From the sequence record PZ445442.1: a DNA stretch of 64,000 nucleotides. The stretch is one strand, 5' to 3'. The DNA comes from a phage. The translations under genes were made by a program, and so were the position numbers. Positions 1 to 63,318 of this stretch are shown one piece after another; position 1 is the first letter of the stretch; each line of letters starts with the position of its first letter. The notes beneath the pieces were generated by a model. That model saw nothing but the letters and a program-made list of their open reading frames with translations, was not told where the DNA came from and did not search any database.

Positions 1-204
1 GTTGAAGTAGGTTTTGGTGGCAAAGGGTGTCAAAACTTGACTCAAGGTAAGGAATACGCTGTTATCTCTGGGGGTGGAGACGAAAGTATTGTGTTCGAGG
101 GCCACATCCTGGGTGCTGAAAACTTTGAAATCTTTGACGACGATGGGGACCCGATCACCTGCCTGCTGGACGGGAATTGGGGAACTTTCGAAGTGATTGG
201 CTAA
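1..204 (+). CDS. hypothetical protein, C-terminal fragment (gene begins upstream of window)
   Basis: Open frame 1 from window start to TAA at 202-204; same orientation as downstream block. Confidence 0.35.
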   Translation, partial: VEVGFGGKGCQNLTQGKEYAVISGGGDESIVFEGHILGAENFEIFDDDGDPITCLLDGNWGTFEVIG

Positions 205-287
205 CAAATACCTATTGTAATTTACAGAAGGGGATGCTAAAATAGTGTCTCCTTCTATGTTGTTCAAATAAAATCGGAGATTCCATA

Positions 288-653
288 ATGGAACAAATGA
301 ACGATCAAGCGTCGGTTGCGATGAACGAGCAAGAACAACCTCAAGAATTTTTCTTAGGGTTAAGTAAAGATCAAGTGTCTCTTCTGCTAGTGCTTTCTTC
401 TTTCATGGGAAGACTTCAGGAGCTTACACAACAGCCAGAGGCTGAACAATTATTCCAGGCTCTGCGTGAAGAAGAAAAATATCGTCGTTTGGACTATGCC
501 TTAGGTTGGGTAGCTCAACAACGAGATATGCTGATGGCCCTCTCTGGGACCACAAGTTTTGCAATGGGCCTGTTGGCTCAAGTTCAGGACAAATTAATTC
601 AAGCAGGGTTTGCACACACGGCAAACACTAACGAAGAACAAGGAGATAAATAA
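288..653 (+). CDS. hypothetical protein
   Basis: 121-aa ORF, GGAG-type RBS upstream, stop overlaps next start (TAATG). Confidence 0.5.
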   Translation: MEQMNDQASVAMNEQEQPQEFFLGLSKDQVSLLLVLSSFMGRLQELTQQPEAEQLFQALREEEKYRRLDYALGWVAQQRDMLMALSGTTSFAMGLLAQVQDKLIQAGFAHTANTNEEQGDK

Positions 654-1924
654 TGAGCGTTATTCAACAATTCGCTAACCCGATGAATCCGCGTGAAACT
701 GTTTTACTAGCTCACGGCATGATTAAACGTGTCAGCATCAAGCCTATCAAAGGTGCTGATCCTACAACAGGTATTAAAACCACTGTGTGGCAAGGTAAGA
801 AAATTGAATCCAGCCACACCATCTCTTTACTGATTTCTGAACTGGATTCCTCTGATAACCTACTTCAAGGTGGTGAAGAAGTTTGGATCAGTATGGGCGA
901 TAAGCTGCTTAAACCAGGTCATCAAGACTCTGTCTCTGTTAAAATTGATGACAAGTGGGAAACCGTAACGCCAGGATGGATCGTAAATATCCCTTTGAAG
1001 GCAAACGAGCATAACGGTAAGACCTACTACAAAGGCTCACTGGCTAAGATGGTTAAGCTGGGTGCAGGAGAGGCTCCAGCAGCGACTCAGCAGCAAAAAC
1101 AGCAACAAGGTGCACAATCACAAGGCCAGAAGCAGAAACCTCAGCAGAATGCCAATCAGGGCGTTTTACGCATCTATGGTGATGTGACTCAGATTGTTGG
1201 CAACGTGGTTACTGTTAATGACCACAAGATTGGCGAAGGTGCTATGGTTGTAACTGATGAGCAGCTTAAAGACCTAGTGGTAGGTGGTCGTGTTGCAGCC
1301 ATTGTTGACAAAGACACCGGAAACATTATCAGTGGTTTCAAGGCCTATCCTCCTAAGGCAGAGAACGGTACTCAAGGCTCCGGTGGCAAGCGTAAATCCT
1401 CTTACGACCCTATTGGTGTGGAGACGGGGCATAGCATCAATGCGTTGCAGATCATCCTGGATCGCGGGTTTAAGGTGGACGACCCACTAGGTGTGGCTAA
1501 AACACTGCACGTAGTCACCATTGAGCTTAAGAAAGAGTATGCTCAAGCCACCAACCGAACTGAAGATGAAGTAGGTGCCAGTGTCGGTAATGCGGTGTTG
1601 AACGCTTGTCGCCGTATTGACAAGAAAACGAAAGTTGATGATTTTGCAGCGGCAATTACTGCAGAAGCAAAAGATGTCTTGACTAATCTGGCTGAGCCGT
1701 TGTACGATTGGATCAAGAACGGTGCTGAGTCCACTGACCATCAAGAACCTCAAGCTGCCAAACAGGAAGCCGCTCCACAGCAAAACACTGTAGACGCACC
1801 TCCTGTAAATGATGAGGAAGATGACCCGATGGGTCAGAATCCGGCGCAGTATGACTTCTGTGATGACATACCTTTCGCTCCGGTAGGTTTGCAATATGGC
1901 AAAAGTAGAATCCACGCATTGTAA
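653..1924 (+). CDS. hypothetical protein, possibly SSB-like (Q-rich linker, acidic tail with DDIPF motif)
   Basis: 423-aa ORF; Gln-rich low-complexity linkers and acidic C-terminal region containing DDIPF, reminiscent of bacterial SSB tail; OB fold not verifiable by eye. Confidence 0.35.
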
Positions 1925-25678: not shown

Positions 25679-25815
25679 TTGGAGGTCTCCTCAATTATTT
25701 GATATTAATAGCCGTAACCTAACACATTAACTACAACTGCGATTGCAAACATAATTTCAAAGCATGCAATCTCTACATTTGGGACTAATTTCTTAATCAC
25801 ACCCATTGTAGCACC

Positions 25816-26934: not shown

Positions 26935-27219
26935 TCACAGCTCTACAATATCTGCATCTGACCCTGCCCCAAAGGCATAATAGGACTCTTCCCCGAAATA
27001 ATATTCCGGTGCACCAGCAGCGATCAGGTCTGATCCCAAAATAAACACCACGTTGTGGCCTACATAGCTGTGATGTTGCCGCACAGGATCATCCCACGGC
27101 AACCCTTCAAAGTATACCGCAGGAACGACCTTTCCTTTCAGGAAGGATTGCCCCAAGTAGACGTTAGAATCAAGAATTTTAACCTTCATGATCGTCCTCC
27201 ACGATCTCCACATCCTCAC
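26935..27219 (-). CDS. small protein, paralog family A (likely starts at internal MKVKILD, about 27189)
   Basis: MKVKILDSN...DLIAAGA...DADIVEL. Confidence 0.5.
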   Translation of the reverse strand: MRMWRSWRTIMKVKILDSNVYLGQSFLKGKVVPAVYFEGLPWDDPVRQHHSYVGHNVVFILGSDLIAAGAPEYYFGEESYYAFGAGSDADIVEL

Positions 27220-27406
27220 CTAGGGCAAAGTTGTAGGTCCACTGACTGTCAAAGCAGTCCTGAGATGCACCAGCGGCAATAAGATCTGCCCCTTTTATTT
27301 TTAAAAGGTCAGGGTAATCTTCGTTAGGTACAGCAGTAAACACTTTCCCTACTAAAGGCTCCTGACCAATATAGAAGCTTGAATCTAAAACTTTAACTTT
27401 CATCAA
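27179..27406 (-). CDS. small protein, paralog family A
   Basis: MMKVKVLDSS...GADLIAAGASQD...EDVEIVEDD. Confidence 0.5.
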   Translation of the reverse strand: MMKVKVLDSSFYIGQEPLVGKVFTAVPNEDYPDLLKIKGADLIAAGASQDCFDSQWTYNFALGEDVEIVEDDHEG

Positions 27407-27690
27407 CGGTCTCCATCAGGTGGTTGTGGGACGTAAACACTGTTACGAATATCGTCCGCAGTATAGTAATAAGTGTCTCCAACCCTATCTCTGGCTGCAA
27501 TGTACTCTGCTATACCAATAAGTGCCATTGATTTGGTGGCGTATCTTCCCAACTCGTTAGCTCCCCAGTAGAATTTAGACCAGTAGGGAATAAGACCGAA
27601 CAAATATACCTTTTGACGAACTTCCCAGTAAGTGCCTTTTCCGACAAGTTTAAACTCGACTTCACTACTGTTAATCTTTTTCATTATCAA
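27403..27690 (-). CDS. hypothetical protein
   Basis: 95-aa ORF. Confidence 0.45.
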   Translation of the reverse strand: MIMKKINSSEVEFKLVGKGTYWEVRQKVYLFGLIPYWSKFYWGANELGRYATKSMALIGIAEYIAARDRVGDTYYYTADDIRNSVYVPQPPDGDR

Positions 27691-27983
27691 TCTCCCTCTA
27701 CCGTGGTCGGATTGTCAGTAAGAAATTGAGCATTGGCTGGAGGCACGCCTGACATTTTCCACACAACCATAAGTTTGTAACCCGGCACCCTGTTAAGTGC
27801 AGATCGAGTAGAGTTTGTGCACGTATACTTTCGCTTTCCAAACCCGTTCTCCATCATAATCCAGTACCCAGTATCTTTGTCACCAGGTATCGGTAGACCA
27901 CCTTCATCAACCCACTGAATGGACCACGGCACGATGGCTACAGCTTTATATTTAAACTTTTTAAACCACTCAAAAAGTTTCAT
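27687..27983 (-). CDS. hypothetical protein
   Basis: 98-aa ORF. Confidence 0.45.
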   Translation of the reverse strand: MKLFEWFKKFKYKAVAIVPWSIQWVDEGGLPIPGDKDTGYWIMMENGFGKRKYTCTNSTRSALNRVPGYKLMVVWKMSGVPPANAQFLTDNPTTVEGD

Positions 27984-27986
27984 AAT

Positions 27987-28076
27987 TCAGCCTCGCATAG
28001 ACATAATCACTATAAACAGGCAAACAATGAATCCGAATGCCACGCCACCCATAAACGTTAATATTGATGCAATCAT
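27987..28076 (-). CDS. 29-aa hydrophobic peptide (MIASILTFMGGVAFGFIVCLFIVIMSMRG), copy 1 of tandem duplication
   Basis: Encoded on - strand within 96-bp tandem unit; fits exactly between flanking ORFs; GAGG 10 nt upstream. Confidence 0.4.
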   Translation of the reverse strand: MIASILTFMGGVAFGFIVCLFIVIMSMRG

Positions 28077-28188
28077 AGTCAATCAGCCTCGCATAGACAT
28101 AATCACTATAAACAGGCAAACAATGAATCCGAATGCCACGCCACCCATAAACGTTAATATTGATGCAATCATAGTCAATCAGCCTCGC
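27988..28188. repeat. perfect tandem direct repeat, 96-bp unit, about 2.1 copies
   Basis: Unit CAGCCTCGCATAGACATAATCACTATAAACAGGCAAACAATGAATCCGAATGCCACGCCACCCATAAACGTTAATATTGATGCAATCATAGTCAAT repeats at 27988 and 28084. Confidence 0.9.
28083..28172 (-). CDS. 29-aa hydrophobic peptide, copy 2 (identical)
   Basis: Second 96-bp unit. Confidence 0.4.
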   Translation of the reverse strand: MIASILTFMGGVAFGFIVCLFIVIMSMRG

Positions 28189-28360
28189 TTGGCAACTCTT
28201 CTACCTTAACATGCCGAAAAGTGTTACCGTAATGGTTGATCCATGACATCAGCTCGCTTTCTTGCTCTTCCTCTGGGATGAACTCTCGAATGCTGACAAG
28301 TTTTAAGAAAACCCAATCACAATCTGCACCCATTCTACCAGACAGGCAATAGTGCTTCAT
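28175..28360 (-). CDS. hypothetical protein
   Basis: 61-aa ORF. Confidence 0.4.
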   Translation of the reverse strand: MKHYCLSGRMGADCDWVFLKLVSIREFIPEEEQESELMSWINHYGNTFRHVKVEELPSEAD

Positions 28361-28378
28361 AAAACCCTCCCGCCTGGT

Positions 28379-28573
28379 TTAGAATATTGCTTCTTCCATT
28401 GCGCCTGAGAGCAACAAAGAGGTGATCTGGCTAACATTCATCTCAGACTCTACTTCCTCCCCTTTGAAAGGTTCGCGGCAGAATAGGACTGTTTCAGGAC
28501 TTTTACTTCGAACAATATAATACAAATCATTCAATGTGTTGTAGTAATAAGTGTTAAAATGTAAGTTTTTCAT
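28379..28573 (-). CDS. hypothetical protein
   Basis: 64-aa ORF. Confidence 0.4.
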   Translation of the reverse strand: MKNLHFNTYYYNTLNDLYYIVRSKSPETVLFCREPFKGEEVESEMNVSQITSLLLSGAMEEAIF

Positions 28574-28857
28574 TTTCTAGTCCTCTTCTTAGATTTTTGT
28601 GCAGAAACGCTTTCTGCAATACGAGACAGGCGTTCTTCTGAAGCTTTACCTATCCCAGGTTTCTTGAGCGGGTTATCTTTATGACCGCAATCCAATTGGA
28701 TATTGGATACCTCCCCAACCTTGTAAGTCAATTCTAGCAAAAGGTTGTCGTCCTTGTCAAATGTTCTTACGATAAATTTTTTATCGTTCTCCTGAACTTC
28801 ATATCTGGTACCTGCAGTATACAACATGGTACCATCAGCATAGGATATCCAGATCAT
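28570..28857 (-). CDS. hypothetical protein
   Basis: 95-aa ORF. Confidence 0.45.
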   Translation of the reverse strand: MIWISYADGTMLYTAGTRYEVQENDKKFIVRTFDKDDNLLLELTYKVGEVSNIQLDCGHKDNPLKKPGIGKASEERLSRIAESVSAQKSKKRTRK

Positions 28858-29201
28858 TGAGCCTCCTTCTGCTGCAACAGCATTAACTCTTTGTTAGAGA
28901 TCTTTACTGCTGTTTTTATTGTTCCATCTTTACGGAACCACGACCAGAACTCTACAGTGTCCCCACTATCAAGCAAAGCATACCCGTGGTAGAAGTCTTT
29001 GTCCTTAGACAGTTTCTCATCTATGTCTGCATCGACACATTCATGATCCATAGCATTTTGCCTGAATGCATCGGTTATGCCAATGCACGCCTTGCTCTCA
29101 AGACTGGTATATCCGATATCTTTTAATTCAGTTTCCCAAGTCCAGTACCCTATAAAAGCTAAAACAGCTACCCACAGTAATAACGTTTTAATCTTTGGCA
29201 T
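28854..29201 (-). CDS. putative membrane-anchored/exported protein
   Basis: N-terminal signal-anchor LLLWVAVLAFIGYWTW. Confidence 0.45.
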   Translation of the reverse strand: MPKIKTLLLWVAVLAFIGYWTWETELKDIGYTSLESKACIGITDAFRQNAMDHECVDADIDEKLSKDKDFYHGYALLDSGDTVEFWSWFRKDGTIKTAVKISNKELMLLQQKEAQ

Positions 29202-29263
29202 TCTCTCTACCTCTTTCTTAGTTTATTTCACTATGGCACATCCTTTGTGCCATATCTCAACTA

Positions 29264-29734
29264 CTACTTAAATAGTAGTTCAAAATAGTGCAAAATTAAC
29301 AGAAGTTGAACTACACCTAGTGCAACGGCAAGTATGTTAATCTTAGAATCGAAAAACTTCTTAACTTTTACTCTAAAAGGTTCCTTAATGTCCTTTACGA
29401 TCCTATCTATAGATGACCTCATATCTCTGATTACCATCCTGAACATTAAAGACGGATGCTCCCCCATCTCTGTAACGGAATCGAAAACATACTCTCTTCG
29501 GTCATAAGGGCCGCCAGCTCTGCGTATTAACCTCTCCACAGAGACCTCGAACGTCACACCTGTAACGTAATCATCTATAACAAGTCGTGACGGGTCTTTA
29601 CCTTTACTATCAAGAGGTATCAAAGTTATCTTTCCAGATTTTGTTAAAATTTCCCCTTTTTCAAGCAAGGTGTACCAATGCTCTCTGCCAAGACTGTTGA
29701 GGCACGTTTTTACATATTTAACAAACATCGTCAC
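29264..29734 (-). CDS. hypothetical protein with C-terminal TM helix
   Basis: 156-aa ORF, C-terminal ILAVALGVVQLLLILHYF. Confidence 0.45.
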   Translation of the reverse strand: MTMFVKYVKTCLNSLGREHWYTLLEKGEILTKSGKITLIPLDSKGKDPSRLVIDDYVTGVTFEVSVERLIRRAGGPYDRREYVFDSVTEMGEHPSLMFRMVIRDMRSSIDRIVKDIKEPFRVKVKKFFDSKINILAVALGVVQLLLILHYFELLFK

Positions 29735-29934
29735 CCCTCATCGCACGTCTGATATAACCACTCTATAAAATCTTGATACCATTCTCCCTCTGAGCGCTCC
29801 GTAGGCCAATAATCTTCACCCTCTCGTGCATTAAAATCTGAGTATTCAACTTTCCACTCCTTTACCAGCTCGTGGAGAAGGTTTTCAGCCTGCTCTAAAG
29901 ATTTATTTTTTACCATTGCTGTCTCCTTTTTCAA
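29731..29934 (-). CDS. hypothetical protein
   Basis: 67-aa ORF. Confidence 0.4.
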   Translation of the reverse strand: MKKETAMVKNKSLEQAENLLHELVKEWKVEYSDFNAREGEDYWPTERSEGEWYQDFIEWLYQTCDEG

Positions 29935-30135
29935 GATAGTTATACATCAGAACTGCACCACCTAAGATGGCTACCAGTAACAATACCCCAGATAGCATCT
30001 CAATAAACATGGCTTGAAACACTGGAAGGCCTCCCTAAATTAACGCACCATTTTAAATACATGCTCTTTTCCCATAAAGGTGCCTGGCTAAGATCTGCGT
30101 AGAACGCAATCTCTTTAAGAACAGTATAAACAGTT

Positions 30136-36265: not shown

Positions 36266-37534
36266 TCAGCAACCACAACTTCCGTAGTGCTTAACTCGCT
36301 CGATAACTTCCGCTTGCTTACCTTTATTGTAAGGACGGGAGTTAGGACTGGAAAGATATCCAGACACTCTTCGGATCACTGAGATATATTGTTCATCGTG
36401 GCATCCGCACGCAGGGCAGCAGAACCCTTTAGCTGTTGCACTGAACTCACCAGAGAAACCACACTTGAGACATTTATCCACAGGTTGGTTAATACCAAAA
36501 TACATAATGTGTTTATACCCGAAGTCAACAAGAGCCTCTAAAGCATCCAGGTTGTTTTTCAGGTTAGGTGTCTCTACGTATCCGATGTTGCCACCAGAGG
36601 AGATCATAGCAAAACCTTCCTCATACTCCCACTTATCAAAAGGAGAGCTATTTATCCATACTGGCTGATGGAAACTGTTGGTGAGATATTCATGCTCGTG
36701 CTTCAACACTTCCGGATATTCACGATCCAGACAGGTTGCAGCTTTATAGCATAGACTCTCAGAAGGAGTGCCGTACAAGCTAAATGCTAGTCTACTTTCC
36801 TTCTTGTATCGCTCACAAGCATCTCTCATGTGCTGAAGGATTCTAAGAGCTAAAGCCTTGTCACCCTCTCTACCCAAAATCTGACAGGTTTCATACACAC
36901 CAATATACCCAATACTGATGGAAGCGTACCCGTCATAGAAGAGTTTATCAATACTCTCTTCAGGACCCAGGCGAGCAAGAGCGCCTTCACACCACATGAT
37001 AGGGTTCTGCCCTGCCTTGGTGCCTTTCAGACGGTTAACCCTTACAAGGTGAGCTTCATATGCCAAATCCAGATACTCGTCAAGAACGGCAAAGAAATCA
37101 ACACCTTCCGTCTTAGCTTTTGCCGCAATCATTGGTAGGTTAAGGCTAACAACACCCAAGTTGAATCTGCCGAGGTATTTCTCCTCACCTGTTTCCAAGT
37201 CATTGTATTTGCTAAGAAAACTCCGGCAACCCATGCTCGTTACTTTGCCATCTGTCGATCCTGTTACTTTACGATTTAGTGGAACAGAAACAAAGTCAGG
37301 ATAAATCCGCTCTGCAGAGCATTCCAGAGCTAATCGTTTCAAATCATAGTTAGGATCTCCAGGGTTCATGTTGACACCCTCTTCTAGGAAGAACAACACT
37401 TTAGGGAACACAGGTGTGATACGTTCTTCACCAAGACCCATTTTGTGGACTTTCAAGTAGTTTTTGGTAATCATTCTACCAAAGACTGAGGTGTCCAGAC
37501 CTAAACTTAATGTGATGAATGGAGTCTGCTGTCT
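36266..37534 (-). CDS. nrdD: anaerobic ribonucleotide reductase NrdD, exon 2 (C-terminal part; 5' boundary approximate)
   Basis: C-terminal Zn-binding cysteines and glycyl-radical motif RVSGY; frame stays open 93 nt upstream of annotated ATG to the HEG stop. Confidence 0.8.
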   Translation of the reverse strand, partial: RQQTPFITLSLGLDTSVFGRMITKNYLKVHKMGLGEERITPVFPKVLFFLEEGVNMNPGDPNYDLKRLALECSAERIYPDFVSVPLNRKVTGSTDGKVTSMGCRSFLSKYNDLETGEEKYLGRFNLGVVSLNLPMIAAKAKTEGVDFFAVLDEYLDLAYEAHLVRVNRLKGTKAGQNPIMWCEGALARLGPEESIDKLFYDGYASISIGYIGVYETCQILGREGDKALALRILQHMRDACERYKKESRLAFSLYGTPSESLCYKAATCLDREYPEVLKHEHEYLTNSFHQPVWINSSPFDKWEYEEGFAMISSGGNIGYVETPNLKNNLDALEALVDFGYKHIMYFGINQPVDKCLKCGFSGEFSATAKGFCCPACGCHDEQYISVIRRVSGYLSSPNSRPYNKGKQAEVIERVKHYGSCGC

Positions 37535-38325
37535 CCTCCCTGTGTTTCCACAGGGCCAGACTATCTCTTACTCTACTTCAATAAGATAATAACCCTTTAT
37601 TGTGAGATGCTTACCTTCGGCATTTCCTTCGATAGCCCTATGAACGTTACCTACGTTCAAGTTTAAGGCTTTTGCACAGGCATAGAGTGAAGGATATTCA
37701 CCCACCAAGGTTTTCCCTTTGTATGCCTGCACTTTCCTATAGCACTTACCTGGACAAAGTCCTGTTCGGAAAGCATGTCTCTTATTATCTTCCGGCAAAA
37801 CCCACTCTAGGTTAGACGGATGATCATTCAATGTATTGCCATCTTTATGATTCACTTCCCAGTTTTCAGGGTCTTCTGGGACATCCGGCAAACAATACAA
37901 GGCAACAACCCTTGAGGTTTGGATTCGAATCTTTTTACCTTTGTGGTTGAAAGAGTACATATAACGGCGTTTAACATGCTTGTTACCTTTTCCATAACCT
38001 CCCCACAATATTGGGTGTAGCATTCCACGTTTCCCGTATACGTTTCCAACCTCATCAATCACATAGTTTGATTCTTCACCATTAAGAATGATCTTTTTCA
38101 TAGAGCCTCTCCATTTCGAAGTTAGTATTTCAACTAACCCCTACACTACTTGGTTCAGAAATGTTTGTCAAGCATCTCTGCCTTTCGTTAGTCGTTACAA
38201 CCGTTCCAACTCCTGTAAGAACTAGTCACGGGATTGGCATAGCTTTCGCCTTAGCGTTCCCCGTTAGCCGGATTTACCGACCCCTCTTATGAGGTTAGGA
38301 GAGTTTTACAACGGCCAGTTTGTTA
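37535..38325 (-). mobile_element. putative group I intron in nrdD carrying an HNH homing endonuclease (boundaries approximate)
   Basis: Splits NrdD into two ORFs in the same orientation; GACUA (R-like, around 38223-38227), AAGAGAUAGUCU (S-like) right after HEG stop, CCCUGUG-GAAA-CACAGGG hairpin (P9-like), G before exon 2. Confidence 0.65.
37568..38101 (-). CDS. HNH homing endonuclease (HNH_3 type with NUMOD-like N-terminus and C-terminal HTH)
   Basis: WEVNHKDGNTLNDHPSNLEWVLPEDNKRH matches HNH_3 consensus; own RBS GGAGAGG. Confidence 0.85.
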   Translation of the reverse strand: MKKIILNGEESNYVIDEVGNVYGKRGMLHPILWGGYGKGNKHVKRRYMYSFNHKGKKIRIQTSRVVALYCLPDVPEDPENWEVNHKDGNTLNDHPSNLEWVLPEDNKRHAFRTGLCPGKCYRKVQAYKGKTLVGEYPSLYACAKALNLNVGNVHRAIEGNAEGKHLTIKGYYLIEVE

Positions 38326-39186
38326 ACCGTTGACAGAGGTTAACGTATTGATTTGATAGAGCAAAGTCTGCATGCTGTCAAATACATCTTTATCTGTCAT
38401 TTGCATTGCAACAGTTTCAGCATCCGGCAACCAATGTTCCTGGCAAAATTTAAGGTTCTTCTCATAGGTCGCTCCAGCATACTGTGCCAGATAATGATCA
38501 ATATGGCTCATAGTCTGACCTCCATATTGAGCACTAGCTACAGCACTAGAGATTTGGCTAAGGATTGTTGTTGCAACCCCTATTGACTTCGGCTTACTGA
38601 CATGGGCGTTACCAATGTTGAATCCGTTTTCCAACATATCTGGATAATTTACCAAACAACAGTTTGTTAACGGACTGATCAAGTAGTCAAGATCATGCAC
38701 ATGGATGAAGCCTTTATTGTGCTCTTCTGAAACACGGTCTGGCAGGATCTGTGTTGATGCAAGGTGTTTGCTAAGGATGCCTGCAAGCAGGTCACGATGA
38801 GTGTGTACATGATTAGTAGGCTTATTTGCGTTTTCTTTTGTAAATTCATCACAAGTTCGATCCAAGAAGCCACTAATATCTGCAAGCAGTTTTCCACCTG
38901 CCTCTCTGTTATTATCTCTTGTCTGTCTATACTGGATGTATTCTCTGGCTGCACATTTTAAACCCATATCCATAAGAGCATCTTCAACAAGGATATGGAT
39001 ATTTTTTACAGAGATCGTGCACTGGTCGGTTGGTAGATTGTTAGCCACAACTTCATTAACCGCGCAGGCGATCCGGTAAGCTTCTTCTTCAGTATGTCCA
39101 GACTCAAGTAAGGCGGACTCTGCCGCCTTGATCACCTTAATTCCGTTATAGAACTCTTCTCTACCGTCCCGTTTTACAACTTTCAC
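38323..39186 (-). CDS. nrdD: anaerobic ribonucleotide reductase NrdD, exon 1 (N-terminal ATP-cone part)
   Basis: MKVVKRDGREE ATP-cone start, HVHDLDY motif; stop lies just inside intron. Confidence 0.8.
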   Translation of the reverse strand: MKVVKRDGREEFYNGIKVIKAAESALLESGHTEEEAYRIACAVNEVVANNLPTDQCTISVKNIHILVEDALMDMGLKCAAREYIQYRQTRDNNREAGGKLLADISGFLDRTCDEFTKENANKPTNHVHTHRDLLAGILSKHLASTQILPDRVSEEHNKGFIHVHDLDYLISPLTNCCLVNYPDMLENGFNIGNAHVSKPKSIGVATTILSQISSAVASAQYGGQTMSHIDHYLAQYAGATYEKNLKFCQEHWLPDAETVAMQMTDKDVFDSMQTLLYQINTLTSVNG

Positions 39187-63303: not shown

Positions 63304-63318
63304 TTCTGGAGCCTTAAA

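Follow-up and report, generated by a model that had tools for sequence, protein, structure and literature searches.

A membrane-peptide mini-gene found in zero, one or two copies between 10-bp junction repeats in rV5-like phages

The DNA analysed here, a stretch of 64,000 nucleotides from a phage (sequence record PZ445442.1; referred to simply as the window), carries a perfect tandem duplication of a 96-bp unit that contains a gene for a hydrophobic peptide of 29 residues. Taken as a whole, the best explanation is one that we regard as probable: the duplication arose by misalignment between short direct repeats, the unit encodes an accessory, translated membrane peptide, and the same unit has been exchanged between rV5-like phages and temperate phages of the mEpimmI group. 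What the analysis adds is a defined series of zero, one and two copies, along with a junction motif that bounds both the insertions and deletions and the transfer between phages.

Tandem Repeats Finder placed the repeat at 27987..28188 (period 96, 2.1 copies, 100% matches, no indels, score 404), and a repeat search resolved it into two 96-nt units, 27987-28082 and 28083-28178, that were 100% identical. A perfect repeat of 96 bp cannot be a product of chance. The two units are accompanied by a third copy of a 10-bp boundary motif, GCGAGGCTGA (minus strand), exact copies of which occur three times at 96-bp spacing and nowhere else in the 64-kb window. Each unit contains, in minus-strand orientation, a 90-nt ORF (ATG to TGA) for the peptide MIASILTFMGGVAFGFIVCLFIVIMSMRG, at 28172..28083 for the promoter-proximal copy and at 28076..27987 for the identical distal copy, with a GAGG element 10 nt 5' of each ATG. 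The motif itself contains both a Shine–Dalgarno GAGG and a stop TGA. Its first copy (28179..28188, minus strand) lies in the end of the upstream 61-aa gene (..SEAD*) and is the source of the Shine–Dalgarno element for the proximal peptide copy. The second (28083..28092, minus strand) ends the proximal peptide ORF (..MRG*) and marks the novel junction. The third (27987..27996, minus strand) ends the distal ORF and gives the Shine–Dalgarno element of the downstream 98-aa gene.

Both units fit flush between the 61-aa gene (28360..28175, minus strand; bas49_0163, phrog_2381) and the 98-aa gene (27983..27687, minus strand; bas49_0161, phrog_8932), as named from record annotation and PHROGs. The first-pass annotation had described a perfect 96-bp tandem duplication with two identical hydrophobic 29-aa peptides on the minus strand, each unit consisting of a complete ORF with an upstream GAGG and packed tightly between its neighbours. 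The two repeat analyses and the ORF coordinates agree with that description throughout, and the duplication is confirmed as real at the level of the sequence. Absent from the description were the 10-bp boundary repeat, which accounts for the exact limits of the units, and, as shown below, the copy-number series, the dispensability of the cassette, and its presence in temperate prophages. The same annotation had called a plus-strand ORF across the repeat spurious. This ORF (96 aa, 27919..28209), seen in the ORF scan and lengthened by the repeat, is annotated in no relative, and codon-phase analysis bore the earlier judgement out, since natural variants track the codon phase of the minus strand.

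After removal of one unit, the window showed 0 mismatches over 64 kb to Escherichia phage EmilHeitz, which is Bas49 of the BASEL collection and an rV5-like member of the genus Vequintavirus. Its record MZ501062.1, the only public genome of EmilHeitz, has a single copy of the cassette, annotated as bas49_0162, 'hypothetical protein', the equivalent of the proximal copy. The window maps to 76759..139980 of that record and then to 1..682. It crosses the end and start of the linear record (139980 to 1) unbroken at 63318/63319, for which reason the source was taken to be circular or circularly permuted. In this single-copy progenitor, GCGAGGCTGA occurs twice, at the end of the 61-aa gene and at the end of the peptide gene.

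Copy number was then compared among relatives by the span of the locus, one copy being 96 bp and zero copies 192 bp below the window. In the 117 Vequintavirus records that matched the locus, 91 had one copy and 26 had none, as against two in the window. Zero-copy genomes read ..CCAAGCGAGGCTGAATTATG.. and hold exactly one motif; in the alignment (..TTGCCAAGCGAGGCTGAATTATGAAA..) the unit is cleanly missing and a single motif is kept. The phages navn, slur16, Aya, HMD-6, and YP-6 all have the form of the precise deletion product, with one motif left. The adjacent flanks of navn and slur16 are the same as those of the one-copy EmilHeitz, and HMD-6 and YP-6 differ by about 5% from the one-copy phages ECP26, NHEP1, and BP9 and by 20% from EmilHeitz. 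The zero- and one-copy states are mixed in two clades whose flanks differ by 20%, and the same indel must therefore have arisen, or been exchanged, more than once. In a divergent Vequintavirus lineage (IMG/VR UViG 3300010279_000001, L005 ~1480..1500), the site is empty, the motif is degenerate (GTGAGGACGAGTAATG) and ..SEDE* is the end of the upstream protein; such a site may represent an ancestral state in which the slot was never occupied.

Two observations on the records themselves may be noted. Phage EI-SP-GF (L014) combines a 61-aa gene of the ECP26 type with a downstream gene the same as that of EmilHeitz, and these mixed flanks imply a mosaic recombination breakpoint at or in the cassette; the record is marked UNVERIFIED, and the 5' end of its 61-aa gene looks disrupted. 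About 18 'Campylobacter phage' records, several of them UNVERIFIED, are 93–99% identical to E. coli rV5-like phages at the locus, and their host labels look doubtful.

The arrangement in the window is that of a tandem duplication between repeats: the copies are head-to-tail and identical with nothing between them, the progenitor has two boundary repeats where the window has three, and the reciprocal precise deletion exists. To judge from these features, the duplication is microhomology-mediated, and the same process gives the deletion in relatives. At the level of the sequence, the window carries the gain product of misalignment between the GCGAGGCTGA direct repeats that bracket the 96-bp mini-gene, presumably by replication slippage or unequal exchange, and the precise loss in many relatives is a product of the same misalignment. 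As each unit ends with its own GAGG and TGA, any copy number keeps the flanking genes and their translational coupling intact. The identity of the motif at the boundaries could be partly a matter of functional constraint on the Shine–Dalgarno element and stop codon, and some of it could be convergent.

Slipped-strand mispairing or unequal exchange at short direct repeats is a well-established mechanism. Misalignment of this kind has reportedly been described for lacI deletions and for deletions and duplications in phages T7 and T4 (Albertini et al. 1982; Studier et al. 1979; Pierce, Kong and Masker 1991; Bzymek and Lovett 2001). The locus resembles such slippage products in its head-to-tail copies, in the progenitor repeat at both ends, in the n+1 repeats, and in the reciprocal deletion in relatives. 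It differs from them in that the repeat is the Shine–Dalgarno/stop junction of a translationally coupled operon, so that the products stay expression-ready, and in that the motif also bounds a segment common to an unrelated phage group. The duplication alone is an ordinary, textbook slippage product in one phage stock and matters little, beyond the caution that the reference Bas49 genome and this sequence are not the same.

The junction created by the duplication was searched for in five collections. A 40-bp query that seeds only at the true junction gave no match in 50,697 phage records and none in 5,426 complete E. coli genomes, and exact and degenerate junction patterns gave none in IMG/VR, JGI metagenomes, or GTDB genomes. 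A pattern for the 5' end of the gene found 26 further metagenomic and viral loci, with one match apiece, and no allele of more than two copies was present among them. A search with the 98-aa neighbour protein returned one IMG/VR locus only. A Micavibrio MAG and three contigs from JGI also gave pattern matches (L024, L031, L034, L037, L038), but these lay in unrelated ORFs and were discarded as chance. Hence, among the collections searched, the two-copy allele is private to this sequence. Since the one-copy record is otherwise identical, the event must be very recent, as had been proposed from the perfect identity of the copies.

The same two results, that MZ501062.1 is identical over the full window yet has one copy and that the junction is in no other record, would also be obtained if the second unit were an artefact of assembly, of the consensus or of sequence handling, or an in silico edit of the one-copy EmilHeitz genome. 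We consider this unlikely. The main argument against a random artefact is the exact coincidence of the boundaries with a 10-bp direct repeat that was already there and that also bounds the natural deletions; the chance that a 96-bp duplication placed at random would do the same is about 1e-5 at most. Moreover, the 10-bp repeat is shorter than assembler k-mers and ordinary reads span a 96-bp unit, which leaves an assembly error with no obvious mechanism.

The status of the 29-aa ORF as a gene was assessed from its natural variation. The full-length ORF is kept in all 91 one-copy records. In 12 sampled alleles, the 17 variant sites split 6/0/11 by codon position; there are 10 synonymous variants, the other seven being conservative hydrophobic exchanges (I2V, M9I, A13S, F14V, V18I/L, S26A). 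The dN/dS ratio was ~0.15–0.3 in the most diverged pairs and rose to ~0.6 where only three sites differ. Because the ORF is intact throughout, its variants follow the codon pattern and its dN/dS is low, it is very probably a translated gene. A 29-codon gene that is left out of most annotations evolves like real coding sequence. The reading of the unit as an RNA element was rejected: Rfam gave no match in 27000-29500 at E<=1, miRNA noise aside, and the unit folded no better than shuffled controls (z = +0.56). A 'younger' age for the cassette than for its flanks was considered but is not claimed, there being too few sites (dS 0.16–0.23, as compared with 0.38–0.44 for the upstream gene).

The predicted product (GRAVY 2.04) has one hydrophobic helix of 25 residues, a GVAFG (GxxxG) motif, and Arg-Gly at its C terminus, and would be an accessory single-pass membrane peptide. 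With the cassette missing from 26 of the 117 relatives (22%), the gene is accessory and dispensable. In size, and in having one hydrophobic helix, the peptide is like several E. coli products, among them KdpF (29 aa), AcrZ, Ibs, and TisB, which belong to the small single-pass membrane proteins and type I toxins. The peptide differs from them in having no sequence similarity to them, Pfam giving sub-threshold noise only, and differs from type I toxins in that no antisense RNA family was detected by Rfam in 27000-29500.

Pfam, NCBIfam, and PADLOC returned nothing for the peptide, its neighbours, or the members of the prophage array described below. PHROGs likewise assigned none of them a function and gave the peptide a weak match only, to phrog_6302 (function unknown), and HMMER against 1.84 billion representatives found only the peptide's own cluster. 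The peptide matched no holin family in Pfam or PHROGs, whereas the real holin of the prophage does match PF16080, and it fell in none of the described superinfection-exclusion or anti-defence families covered by PADLOC, NCBIfam, Pfam, and PHROGs. In EmilHeitz, the gene lies away from the lysis genes, with the endolysin at record position 129457 and the spanins at 1-683. No mention of the gene came up in literature searches, whether on EmilHeitz/Bas49 or on the sequences of the peptides. At a guess, the peptide may modulate a membrane process in infection, such as exclusion, defence evasion, or the timing of lysis, and the duplication would then merely double its dose. The membrane toxin, holin-like modulator, or superinfection-exclusion factor suggested in the first-pass annotation is a guess as well.

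A sigma-70-like consensus match, TTGCCA-N16-TATGAT (28195..28168, minus strand), lies at the start of the proximal copy and is not duplicated; its -10 element overlaps the proximal ATG, and PhagePromoter predicted the same site in phage Gotham. If it is real, one may speculate that the distal copy alone is fully inside its transcript. This bears on the idea, raised in the first-pass annotation as selection for dosage, of an adaptive dosage amplification, a small 'gene accordion' in which more peptide was favoured on the propagation host. That idea, which we hold to be distinctly improbable, would account for a variant expected to be very rare having reached consensus level at a locus where copy number is naturally variable; in its favour, too, the distal copy would lie downstream of a site whose transcript would cut off the proximal start. 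However, passage through a single plaque would fix a neutral variant just as well, the gene is missing from 22% of relatives, alleles of more than two copies were absent from the 26 metagenomic and viral loci, and the promoter is a consensus match only. Poxvirus 'genomic accordions' (Elde et al. 2012) reportedly offer a parallel, in that the tandem copy number of a viral gene varies through recombination; unlike these, the present locus shows zero, one, and two copies only.

A mobile element with a target-site duplication, the peptide ORF being incidental or untranslated, is very hard to credit: although direct repeats flank the unit, its presence is polymorphic and it occurs in two unrelated phage backgrounds, the repeat search found no terminal inverted repeats, folding and Rfam were negative as described above, each genome has one locus and always in the same slot, and the substitutions, with codon position 2 unchanged, fit a translated hydrophobic ORF. 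A transposable element or MITE was rejected likewise, in view of the lack of terminal inverted repeats and of multiple insertion sites.

The evidence for exchange came from temperate prophages. By exact look-up, the peptide belongs to a cluster at 90% identity of which E. coli chromosomal proteins are also members, and the cassette was found in 10 of the 5,426 complete E. coli genomes at 77–89% nucleotide identity. In those genomes it is part of prophages and lies two genes downstream of Rz, with an Sf6-type small terminase beyond it; the lysis module that precedes it comprises a holin of the HP1 family, a lysozyme, Rz, and a 180-aa ORF (phrog_1365). The host prophages match the mEpimmI group (mEp010, mEp013, mEp021, mEp044, mEp515, mEp554, MagusPhagus), which is a group of temperate gut coliphages (PMC11893012). 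The homology between the prophages and the rV5-like phages begins exactly at (A/G)CGAGGCTGA and stops at the next GCGAGGCTGA, and one prophage sub-lineage is 96–97% identical to the rV5-like cassette over the ORF. As far as sequence comparison can tell, an exchange of the cassette between mEpimmI-group and rV5-like phages, with recombination taking place at this shared junction motif, is strongly indicated.

The temperate alleles are about 2.5 times as diverse as those of Vequintavirus (means of 12.5 and 5.2 differences per 90 nt, respectively), and all Vequintavirus alleles group with one temperate sub-lineage. Such a distribution suggests that the home of the family is the temperate array and that there was one recent exchange. 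The direction of transfer is ambiguous, because the closest temperate allele nests within the Vequintavirus diversity. Less ordinary than the duplication is the behaviour of the mini-gene as a whole: one defined 10-bp junction is the site of its gain, its loss, and its duplication, and it has apparently passed between a virulent myovirus and a group of temperate gut coliphages.

The prophage version of the peptide gene stands first in an array of 8–11 or more back-to-back mini-ORFs of 20–47 aa, each with a single hydrophobic helix. These arrays, which are unannotated, lie between the lysis module and the small terminase (L022 6012..6963; L042 5902..6858; L023 6012..6751); they hold paralogues and differ by whole units between prophages. 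A coding signature was evident here too: of 59 alleles, 58 are intact, and variable columns number 46/34/99 over the three codon positions. The 180-aa ORF upstream of the array (L022 5467..6009, phrog_1365) has a HEVAH (HExxH-like) motif and ends ..FKRG*, via the CGAGGCTGA motif that it shares with the peptide.

The first slot of the array is itself variable. In prophage MLI107, it is a precise empty site, AAACGAGGCTGATT|ATGGAT, with one motif left. A different mini-gene occupies it in MagusPhagus and GF66.2 (MFTFLLGVFIGAAG.. / MFTFLLGVFIGAAGTAIVMFSPKWPVG), and another one in STEC308 (MVTFLLGLFIGMAAAVILLVGE). All of these first-slot variants (L050 ~285..300; L051 1418..1507; L052 ~300..390; L053 ~290..360) are bounded by ..TGATTATG junctions. 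Judged by these alleles, the first slot is a swappable position that can be empty, filled, or swapped, as in rV5-like phages. Prophage M1/5 has an extra 20-aa unit, MDAYLFIGMAAAVILFLLWK (L023 6098..6185), bracketed by a 16-bp direct repeat, TGATTATGGACGCTTA, and is another junction-repeat indel, inside the array. The array peptides had no match in family libraries or in the searchable literature, and the array is unmentioned in the mEpimmI paper (PMC11893012). The array of mini membrane-peptide genes in mEpimmI prophages thus appears to be undescribed.

It is possible, though rather doubtful, that the Shine–Dalgarno/stop/start junction (..CGAGGCTGA(T)TATG) serves more generally as a portable recombination linker for plug-in cassettes, each a single-helix mini-gene. 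Cassettes would then grow, shrink, and swap inside the hypervariable array of temperate mEpimmI coliphages, virulent rV5-like phages infecting such lysogens could capture them, and the two-copy allele would be the first step of array growth. If this were true, the array would be a so far undescribed locus in an arms race, its membrane peptides being concerned with exclusion, defence evasion, or lysis control. The locus, with its zero, one, and two copies and alternative cassettes, offers a tractable natural system for the roles of phage micro-membrane-proteins, and could show how translational-coupling junctions channel illegitimate recombination.

Two kinds of exchanged phage segment invite comparison. 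Phage morons (Juhala et al. 2000; Hendrix et al. 2000) are said to be dispensable, horizontally acquired cassettes lying between genes that are adjacent in relatives, and the present cassette has these properties. Unlike morons, it has no terminator and no promoter able to serve its own start codon: no terminator-like site was present at the 96-bp unit, and the sole promoter-like site falls partly inside the upstream gene and extends over the start codon. It also differs in depending on translational coupling and in being far smaller. The 'linkers' of Botstein's modular theory (Botstein 1980) and the boundary sequences of lambdoid phages (Clark et al. 2001) are reportedly short, conserved gene-boundary sequences that form the limit of an exchanged segment, as is the case here. 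In contrast to them, the present locus involves a single 29-codon gene, a linker of 10–14 bp, and a virulent myovirus together with a temperate group.

Some features of the neighbourhood may be recorded. The peptide gene falls in a block of the rV5 genome described as '88 mainly small ORFs' (PMC3606486). In the same block, bas49_0154 (33 aa, 25705..25806, minus strand) and bas49_0169 (35 aa, 29903..30010, minus strand) each have a hydrophobic helix, which makes them further candidate micro-membrane-proteins. The adjacent genes at 26935..27189 and 27179..27403 (minus strand) both matched phrog_5009 (E 5e-32 and 1e-38) and have the look of an old tandem duplication; they lie about 600 bp downstream of the new one. 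The gene for the class III anaerobic NTP reductase, at ~36266..38973 (minus strand; record 112928..115635), is annotated as two joined pieces and has a homing endonuclease gene inside it, which suggests an intron or an intein-like interruption.
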